The translations under genes and the position numbers were made by a program. A stretch of DNA of 64,000 nucleotides, from NCBI GenBank assembly GCA_963731265.1, contig CAVSUE010000001.1, positions 1,184,001 to 1,248,000 of the forward strand, given 5' to 3'. Positions 11,623 to 13,609 of the stretch are shown piece by piece. The DNA is from an uncultured Verrucomicrobiae bacterium. Lineage in GTDB: Bacteria; Chlamydiota; Chlamydiia; Chlamydiales; Rhabdochlamydiaceae. How positions within the stretch are numbered: the stretch's first letter is position 1; each line of letters begins with the position of its first letter. The notes under the pieces are model-generated. The model did no database searches and was not told where the DNA came from. It worked only from the letters and a program-made list of their open reading frames with translations.

Positions 11623-12837
11623 ATGACATCAATCATTTATGCTAATGGAATAAACAATTTACCAATATCTAATCAAATTTCAACTCCTGCGTCTACAATT
11701 TCGCCGTCAAGTAAAAATTCCAGTCCCTCAATAGTTTATTTAGGGTCGGGCACCACGAATCTTCCTGGAATTACAAATCTTTTCTTCGCTCCCTATGAAT
11801 TCTTCCATAGCATGAAAGCGATGCTTTCAGCAGAAAAAATTAATGATCGAGAAGGGATTCTTCAGAATGGATTAAGGGTGATTTCAACCCCTTTTAGCTT
11901 TATTGACTCCGTCTCGAAGCTGGTTTGGTACATTTTCGAAGGAGGAATCTACTTTAAGCTGATATCGGCCGCATACCACCGCACTTTGCTTCCTCTTACA
12001 TGGTACATCACCGGCATCGGCTTTATCATGTGTGCAATCGAAGGAGTGATCGAATCCATCAGCCTCTATCGTACTAAACAATTCTATACTGATTATTATC
12101 CTCAAGAAATCGAACCACTTAAAAAAAATCATCCGATCGATGAAAAAATTTACTTAAACAAGCTTCAGCAACTTCAAAATAGATTTTTAAAAATTTCTCC
12201 TGAAAAGCTGCAAAAAATTCAGGATTATGCTCAAAGCAAGCCCCTTTCCGTTGACAAGCAAAAATTGCAAGAAAAAATCATCAATGCGGAATTGACAACG
12301 CAAAAAAATGATTTAATACGCCGCGTACACCCTTGGCTGGCCGACGAAATTGAACAAAAGATTCCCGGGATCATTCAAAATTTACAGAGCAGCGACCCAA
12401 CCAAAAGAGCGGAAGCCAAAGATAAAGCCGCTGAAATCTTCCAGAACATGAAAGTGCAAACGCACAAAAAAATTCTCATCCATAGCATCGGGCTTGCGGC
12501 GGTGCTGGTCACGACTATAGGACTTATTCTGGGCTGCTTAGCCTTTCCTTTTCTGATTCCTCTTGTAGTTCTCTTGGCAGCGGGCGCCTTATCCCTTGCC
12601 AGACAATTCCTTCATGGAGGCCTCATGGACTCAAAAGGGTGGGAGTTCAACGTTAAAAATTGCATTCCGAGCGCAGTGAAGACAATCTACCATAAAATTG
12701 TCTCCCCGGAAAAAAAGGCAAAGCCTCCGGCATGGCAGCCTATCACCCTCGTCTTCGAGCTTCCAAAAAGAACAGAAGAACCCAGGAGGACAACGCTAGA
12801 CTTTACCCTGACTGTCCCTTCCGGAATTAGAATCTAA
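11623..12837 (+). CDS. hypothetical Inc-like membrane protein
   Basis: S/T/N-rich N-terminus, coiled-coil middle, ~45-aa bilobed hydrophobic segment (ILIHSIGLAAVLV...LLAAGALSLA). Confidence 0.7.
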   Translation: MTSIIYANGINNLPISNQISTPASTISPSSKNSSPSIVYLGSGTTNLPGITNLFFAPYEFFHSMKAMLSAEKINDREGILQNGLRVISTPFSFIDSVSKLVWYIFEGGIYFKLISAAYHRTLLPLTWYITGIGFIMCAIEGVIESISLYRTKQFYTDYYPQEIEPLKKNHPIDEKIYLNKLQQLQNRFLKISPEKLQKIQDYAQSKPLSVDKQKLQEKIINAELTTQKNDLIRRVHPWLADEIEQKIPGIIQNLQSSDPTKRAEAKDKAAEIFQNMKVQTHKKILIHSIGLAAVLVTTIGLILGCLAFPFLIPLVVLLAAGALSLARQFLHGGLMDSKGWEFNVKNCIPSAVKTIYHKIVSPEKKAKPPAWQPITLVFELPKRTEEPRRTTLDFTLTVPSGIRI

Positions 12838-13609
12838 ACAACGGATATTTAAGCTGTCCTTCCCACTGATCCAATAACTCAGTAAATGCTTCAAAAGATG
12901 GCTGCTCCAGAGAAGGGTCGTCATTGTAGGATTGCCATTTTCCATAGCAATGCACCAAGGTGCAGTCGGTGATTATGCTATTGGGCTGAGAATAAGACAG
13001 GGTAAAACACAAGATTTCTTTTTCATGCACTTCGCGGAGCTCTTCTTCCAGGATCTCGCAAAACGGGTCTCTACGAAATAAATAAGAACCCACGGGCTTG
13101 TCCATCAATAGCGTCTCTGCCTCAAACCGATCTACAGGATGCCAAGCTCGCATGAGAATATTTTGATCGGGATGAGAGGCAGAGAAATCAATGTTCACCT
13201 TGGTTAAGACAGCCATTTTCGTGTCAAGATCGCTGGGGCCTTTCAACTTGTGGCAAATCTCATTGAGGACGAGCATCATCTCCCGCATCATGAGATAAGC
13301 CGATGGAGCAAGATCACCCCAGGAGAATCCCTGAATCGAGGATTTGCTTTCCTCGATGAAAAAAAAGATTTCTCCCTTTTGAGGATCAAAGCTGTAAGAA
13401 ATTTCTACCGGTTTCCATTCATCTTTAGTCAAATCAAGAGATTCCCGCATATTAAATACAAGCTGACCCGTTTCTCGATTCAGCCAAGCGGAGAAAATTT
13501 TTTCAGAGGGAATCTCATTCTTGGGCAATTTTTCCTTGGCTCTACGCAAAATTTCCAGGAACAGCTCAATATTCTGCCTGACAGGAACATCTACGATCTT
13601 GACGCGCAT
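12827..13609 (-). CDS. protein with C-terminal SH2-like domain
   Basis: WHPVDRFEAETLLMDKPVGSYLFRRD...FTLSY...FEAFTELL...LKYP matches the SH2 pattern W-H-x3-R-x-EAE-x-LL-x5-G-x-FL-x-R; RBS gaggtgggag before ATG 13609. Confidence 0.7.
   Translation of the reverse strand: MRVKIVDVPVRQNIELFLEILRRAKEKLPKNEIPSEKIFSAWLNRETGQLVFNMRESLDLTKDEWKPVEISYSFDPQKGEIFFFIEESKSSIQGFSWGDLAPSAYLMMREMMLVLNEICHKLKGPSDLDTKMAVLTKVNIDFSASHPDQNILMRAWHPVDRFEAETLLMDKPVGSYLFRRDPFCEILEEELREVHEKEILCFTLSYSQPNSIITDCTLVHCYGKWQSYNDDPSLEQPSFEAFTELLDQWEGQLKYPLFRF

Follow-up and report, generated by a model that had tools for sequence, protein, structure and literature searches.

The 64,000-nucleotide stretch of chlamydial DNA that we analysed (the window) carries a gene for a 260-aa two-domain protein whose C-terminal part was confirmed, by profile matches and a predicted structure, as an SH2-fold domain. 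The gene occupies positions 12827-13609 of the minus strand, stop codon included. Its true start is the ATG at 13609, as the alignment of homologues opens at that Met and the cluster record is 260 aa; the TTG at 13648, where the ORF list had begun the frame, was rejected on the same grounds. Residues 1-141 (13187-13609, minus strand) form an alpha/beta domain without a family or clear fold match, and residues 156-260 (12830-13144, minus strand) form the SH2-fold domain. Between them, just ahead of the SH2 core, the AlphaFold2 model predicts a helix at residues 147-154 (13148-13171, minus strand), which falls within the range that aligns to SOCS and other SH2 chains. A reading of this DNA from sequence only had placed a bacterial SH2-like domain at 12830-13144; this interval is exactly W156-F260, the C-terminal 105 residues of the 260-aa protein, and the motifs quoted in that reading are present in the minus-strand ORF ending at 12827. 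A promoter and terminator scan gave results at chance level.

The SH2 relationship emerged at the level of the family. As a single sequence, the window's protein had no SH2 match in Pfam and none among PDB sequences, and it did not match PF00017 at the curated cut-off, which five family members (G319, G312, G182, G223, and G157) do exceed. We built a profile from 67 homologues, having set aside three of an initial 70 because their starts were doubtful. At E<=1, 27 of these 67 homologues matched PF00017 (best 4.3e-6), so that the HMMER-type check proposed by the sequence-only reading, negative for the one sequence, was positive for part of the family. Against the PDB, the best 60 of 151 profile matches (best 1.2e-5) all contained SH2 domains, the aligned part being mostly betaA-alphaA-betaB, and Arg179 was aligned to the FLVR Arg of p85. 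A profile of the SH2 part alone matched Vav1 at E 2e-4 and reached profile positions 6-92. NCBIfam offered no family common to more than one of the 67 members, and the two nearest Atlas clusters, which we treat as leads only, were mostly Chlamydiota (scores 0.88 and 0.87).

The predicted structure agreed with the profiles. The AlphaFold2 model of the full protein had a mean pLDDT of 93 and a pTM of 0.66, which fits two well-folded domains whose relative position is uncertain. In the SH2 part, helices 161-169 and 242-249 flank strands 175-179, 199-208, 212-221, and 224-228. When the model was compared with 48,161 solved chains, all of the best 50 matches listed were SH2-containing proteins, led by SOCS1 (6c5x; Z 11.5, rmsd 2.9 Å, 94 residues) and SAP (1ka6; Z 11.4, rmsd 3.2 Å, 95 residues), with SHP2, SOCS4, and SOCS6 also near the top and the aligned range covering approximately model residues 145-260. 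Sequence identity to the top 40 of these matches was 12-29%. The Legionella proteins LeSH and RavO were not among the best 50 listed, although similarity to them is possible all the same. By the two-part definition of bacterial SH2 domains in the available text of PMC6208348, the protein counts as one. Together, these data uphold the proposed SH2 assignment: the leading profile and predicted-structure matches were all SH2 proteins.

To describe the pocket we used 210 aligned rows, namely 67 genome proteins and 143 library representatives (150 less seven that did not cover the domain), two related sets that may overlap; position labels rest on profile alignments and general SH2 nomenclature. 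Mean column identity over the whole protein was 30%, yet two arginines were nearly invariant: Arg161 at alphaA2 (13127-13129, minus strand; Arg in 204 of 210 rows) and Arg179 at betaB5, the FLVR position (13073-13075, minus strand; 208 of 210), the residue that had been picked out from the sequence as the betaB5 Arg. The betaC5 position was Ser or Thr in 203 rows. By its sequence, and through Arg161 and Arg179, the domain is of the Src-like class, for which a basic alphaA2 residue and the betaB5 Arg are given in the available text of PMC7530234. The helical insert noticed earlier after the FLVR-equivalent motif was recovered in the model as a predicted helix at 182-195 in the BC (phosphate-binding) loop, with Asp181, kept in 192 of 210 rows, just before it (together 13025-13069, minus strand). 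The insert amounts to 14-15 residues, and the betaB5-betaC5 spacing was 25-26 residues in 65 of 67 members, whereas two other SH2 groups from chlamydiae mostly have 10-11.

Canonical phosphotyrosine-binding SH2 domains have a short BC loop and a His at betaD4. The chlamydial domain departs from the canonical features both in its BC-loop insert and at this position, where Asp215 (12965-12967, minus strand) is Asp or Glu in all 210 rows and aligns by profile with the His of the other chlamydial SH2 groups. The position is singled out as an important one in the available text of PMC7530234. At betaD6, at least 207 of 210 rows lacked a basic residue. A conserved YxDDPxL motif follows betaE (12908-12928, minus strand), in the EF-loop region, likely the specificity side of the domain. 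The domain is also net acidic (median charge -5, negative in 55 of 67 members); a small stand-alone chlamydial SH2 group is likewise acidic (17 of 19), and charge by itself is therefore of little diagnostic value. The BC-loop helix, acidic betaD4, and YxDDPxL motif suggest that the phosphate pocket has been remodelled. The predicted role as a phosphotyrosine reader is thus less safe than the sequence-only reading had stated, because betaD4 is invariably acidic and a helix appears to sit in the phosphate-binding loop.

The N-terminal domain, which the sequence-only reading had left unrecognised, is indeed without a family in Pfam and PDB searches: no consistent Pfam family was found in 63 members, no PDB sequence fell under E 0.2, and there was no usable Atlas match. 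Modelled alone, it reached pLDDT 90 and pTM 0.83 and ran in the order strand, helix, three long strands with a hairpin, two helices, and strand. Its best structural match had a Z of 4.4 (rmsd 3.6 Å, 81 residues), and no chain reached Z 5 among 48,161 chains, in a search where Z 7-8 is typical for models without a clear match; a new fold is not proven thereby, but the domain is possibly one. Two candidate origins gained no support, an internal repeat of the SH2 part (profile probability 0.3) and a CesT-type chaperone (hhalign probability 0.2 against 33 chlamydial CesT rows); CesT-type chaperones were also absent among the best 50 structural matches listed. The domain was less conserved than the SH2 part (27% versus 39% mean column identity). 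Among 11 loci checked for short forms, nine had, in the same position, an ORF for the SH2 part only and none for the N-domain in the vicinity, and some of these short forms could be assembly errors; of the other two, one was full-length and one ended at a contig edge. The better conservation of the SH2 part, and the missing N-terminal domain in nine genomes, point to the SH2 part as the conserved functional core.

The distribution across Chlamydiae, proposed as a check on the SH2 claim, proved to be that of a single-copy gene in 95 of 400 phylum genomes. A single-query search had found it in 91; the profile search found 104, nine of which held only weak matches to other SH2 proteins. The 95 carriers were 63 of 89 genomes of one family (f1), 30 of 69 of a second (f7), one genome of a third (f37), and the window's own genome. 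Searches of other families turned up no copy, and none of the nine genomes of genus g3 gave one. No genome had two full copies, as double matches were frame pieces, a contig break, or members of the small SH2 group, and four SH2 profiles found no other SH2-like ORF in the window's own genome. Homologue lengths among the matches listed were 92-316 aa. In a tree of 67 proteins, made by a quick method only, one branch with support 98 split the 47 f1 from the 20 f7 proteins. Over 325 pairs, mean identity was 42% for the SH2 part and 47% for proC, a roughly similar degree of divergence.

At 70 loci, viewed with flanks of 1.5-3 kb, the recurrent neighbours were a nitroreductase (34 loci), proC (29), Sua5 (28), a convergent membrane protein (27), a TMEM14-like protein (26), and an amino-acid permease (20). 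In the window, proC (pyrroline-5-carboxylate reductase; 13670-14452, minus strand) lies 60 nt upstream on the same strand. The adjacency reported from the sequence is therefore real, but the link is incidental: proC was absent from all 20 f7 loci, marking it as a passenger, and a functional link between the two genes was rejected on these counts. Together, the single copy, the recurring block, and a tree that follows family taxonomy suggest that the SH2 gene is vertically inherited and core-like. Other features of the window are context only. Upstream of proC, at 14488-15477 (minus strand), a GrpB domain is fused to a GNAT acetyltransferase. The convergent 404-aa membrane protein (11623-12837, plus strand) has a Ser/Thr-rich N-terminus, a 48-residue hydrophobic segment, and no Pfam family, features that make it a candidate inclusion-membrane protein.

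The genome that contains the window (2.34 Mb, 96% complete) has five kinase-domain ORFs, including kinases resembling PknD, Pkn1, and Pkn5, and an McsB-type kinase domain. The Pkn1-like kinase combines a kinase and an FGE-sulfatase domain (L155:184-2608; G000:C1:984983-987407), and directly after it lies the gene of a low-molecular-weight phosphatase that could act on phosphotyrosine or phospho-arginine. Two more kinase-domain ORFs (G000:C1:953455-954447 and G000:C2:116946-118439) go beyond the three usual chlamydial kinases, and both have HxDIK catalytic loops and no obvious tyrosine-kinase signature. No BY-type tyrosine kinase was found over cut-off in this genome. It also holds five TLC nucleotide-transporter matches, a type III export-gate gene, three CesT chaperones, and a NADAR domain fused to a classical tyrosine phosphatase with an intact HC...GVGRT motif (L154:157-1701; G000:C1:408156-409700). 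On the strength of the transporters, export gate, chaperones, kinases, and McsB-type domain, together with the Atlas leads, we regard the organism as an environmental chlamydia. As a point against this, PF03504, a chlamydial envelope protein family, was not found in the genome, but the control was likewise without any match.

Our leading reading, held tentatively and at somewhat less than an even chance, is that the protein is an intracellular reader of a phosphorylated residue with a narrowed pocket. It would likely stay in the bacterial cytoplasm and is predicted to recognise a phospho-residue, phosphotyrosine being the most likely, on a protein of the bacterium itself, with Arg161 and Arg179 holding the phosphate. 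A narrow range of partners, perhaps a single protein or a few, may follow from the helix in the BC loop, from Asp215, and from the acidic loop with the YxDDPxL motif; such partners would probably carry basic residues next to the phosphorylated site. The N-terminal domain may be an accessory part that mediates interactions. Hanks-type kinases of the genome would add the mark, and the low-molecular-weight phosphatase whose gene follows that of the Pkn1-like kinase would remove it. An endogenous source of phosphotyrosine is only putative, because Tyr phosphorylation is reported for C. pneumoniae PknD but not for the kinases of C. trachomatis, which failed to phosphorylate this residue (both in the available text of PMC5177608). 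Against this reading, no BY-type kinase passed the cut-off in the genome, kinases of the PknD type are said to occur throughout Chlamydia while the SH2 gene was found in three families only, and the bacterial SH2 proteins tested in the available text of PMC6208348 are translocated effectors. In addition, the invariant acidic betaD4 and the net acidic domain could disfavour any phospho-ligand.

On balance unlikely, though a serious alternative, is a secreted effector that would bind host phosphotyrosine proteins through Arg161 and Arg179, its N-terminal domain recruiting or blocking a host partner. The type III export-gate gene, CesT-family chaperones, nucleotide transporters, and NADAR-phosphatase fusion suggest that the organism probably engages host phosphotyrosine; other chlamydial SH2 domains occur in long, effector-like, often multi-SH2 ORFs, the Legionella SH2 effectors provide a precedent (available text of PMC6208348), and no BY kinase was found over cut-off. 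The protein's own N-terminus argues otherwise, as it is conserved and, in the alignment and model, structured from residue 2, with no low-complexity Ser/Thr-rich leader. Type III secretion signals are unstructured, Ser/Thr-rich N-termini and are degenerate. Ser plus Thr made up 6% of the first 25 residues in 64 full-length SH2 proteins, 8% in proC, 11-13% in the nitroreductase and Sua5, and 27% in 16 convergent membrane proteins, in a comparison that is a weak test of secretion, with neighbour starts set mechanically and a positive control, the membrane neighbour, that is itself only inferred to be secreted. In composition the N-terminus resembles those of the housekeeping neighbours, and together with the model this speaks, if weakly, against a secretion signal. 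The SH2 gene also has a fixed copy number, length, and locus across three families, unlike the classical tyrosine phosphatases of f1, which are patchy (63 of 121 genomes, one to four matches, variable length), and the scattered long SH2 ORFs, and this difference favours a resident protein. Of the two roles that the sequence-only reading had left side by side, a host-directed effector and an endogenous signalling protein, the evidence leans toward the endogenous one.

The pocket residues bear on a further alternative, which we consider improbable: a repurposed SH2 fold, in which Asp215 or Asp181 would pair with a conserved Arg, and the domain would bind an unphosphorylated partner or bind phosphotyrosine independently of the FLVR Arg. 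Both behaviours have precedents in the available text of PMC7530234, where JAK SH2 domains bind an unphosphorylated partner and the p120RasGAP C-SH2 domain binds phosphotyrosine without the FLVR Arg. The invariant acidic betaD4, the well-kept Asp181, the non-basic betaD6, and the helix in the phosphate-binding loop all speak for such a change, but two nearly invariant arginines occupy phosphate-binding positions, for which anion binding is the simplest explanation, and Asp181, which precedes the helix in the model, could be a helix cap. Very improbable is a phospho-arginine reader downstream of McsB, in which the two arginines would hold the phosphate and the acidic betaD4 the guanidinium: ClpC binds phospho-arginine through a basic-plus-acidic two-part site to which this pocket can be likened, and the genome has an McsB-type kinase domain and a low-molecular-weight phosphatase, but the case is pure analogy, McsB is said to be widespread in Chlamydia while the SH2 gene was found in three families only, and the annotated clusters flanking the gene do not include McsB.

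The reading of an intracellular phospho-residue reader can be carried further, to a home-grown bacterial SH2 circuit whose reader would recognise phosphotyrosine or phospho-arginine on the bacterium's own proteins, a proposal that we regard as possible but doubtful. The SH2 domain would have become fixed in the ancestor of several chlamydial families and would have gained a new helix in its pocket, together with a partner domain whose fold is possibly new. If true, it would be the first case of an SH2 domain serving a prokaryote's internal signalling. SH2 domains are regarded as eukaryotic; the sequence-only reading had called them essentially so, with bacterial examples mainly from Legionella. 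The bacterial examples in the literature consulted are indeed Legionellales effectors (available text of PMC6208348), but SH2 domains are not rare in this phylum, as PF00017 matched over cut-off in 30 of 400 phylum genomes and in none of 14 controls. No chlamydia-encoded SH2 domain was described in the literature searched (titles and abstract openings, subscription papers lying outside), and some clusters from Chlamydiota already bear an SH2 label from automatic annotation. Chlamydial SH2 domains are therefore visible in databases, and what appears undescribed in that literature is the 260-aa protein family and its pocket. With a core SH2 gene that is apparently inherited vertically in three families of chlamydiae, the domain's range grows by a phylum, and the question arises of whether SH2 readers serve bacteria in phospho-signalling of their own. 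The predicted BC-loop helix and acidic betaD4 are pocket designs undescribed in the available text of the SH2 review PMC7530234, making the domain a target for specificity and structure studies, and the N-terminal domain may add a fold.

Within the phylum, we also observed two other SH2 groups. One consists of small stand-alone proteins with open frames of 116-174 aa (L082:185-583, L101-L103, L106-L112, L114-L116, L119, L120, L081, L086, and L089), which have an invariant betaB5 Arg and betaD4 His, mostly lack the alphaA2 Arg, and carry a C-terminal IMHC...C-P-L motif; SH2 profiles did not find this group in the window's own genome. The other, spread over many families of chlamydiae, consists of long ORFs of 220 to >3,000 aa, each holding one or more ordinary SH2 domains (L071-L079, L083-L085, L087, L092, L094-L098, L113, and L117), for example three SH2 domains in one 734-aa frame; these look like a scattered effector set. 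Profile-profile probabilities relate our family to both, at 98.2 for the stand-alone group (A4) and 97.5 for the long multi-SH2 group (A5), but both keep a betaD4 His and a short BC loop, in contrast to the domain described here.

Among known systems, LeSH, RavO, and other Legionella SH2 effectors share with the chlamydial protein a bacterial SH2 fold, the betaB5 Arg, and an origin in an intracellular bacterium (available text of PMC6208348). LeSH also has a helical insert, but this is a 45-residue PP-fold between betaE and alphaB rather than in the BC loop; in our model only 13 residues separate strand 224-228 from helix 242-249. The Legionella proteins are translocated effectors, whereas the chlamydial gene appears core-like and its product has no evident secretion leader. 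The main text and two text-format supplement files of PMC6208348 do not mention chlamydiae. JAK/TYK2, the p120RasGAP C-SH2 domain, and Spt6 resemble our domain in having altered phospho-pockets (available text of PMC7530234). p120RasGAP likewise has an Asp near the FLVR Arg but uses basic betaD4 and betaD6 residues, where the chlamydial domain is acidic and non-basic, respectively, and TYK2 has lost the betaB5 Arg that the chlamydial domain keeps. With eukaryotic Src-like SH2 domains, it shares the predicted fold, the element order, the betaA Trp, Arg at alphaA2 and betaB5, and Ser/Thr at betaC5, and the structural alignment (model 145-260) even takes in the helix before the domain. It differs from them in its BC-loop helix, its Asp/Glu at betaD4, its YxDDPxL motif, the Asp or Gly-Asp after betaB that replaces the FLVRES serine, and its fusion to an unrelated N-terminal domain.
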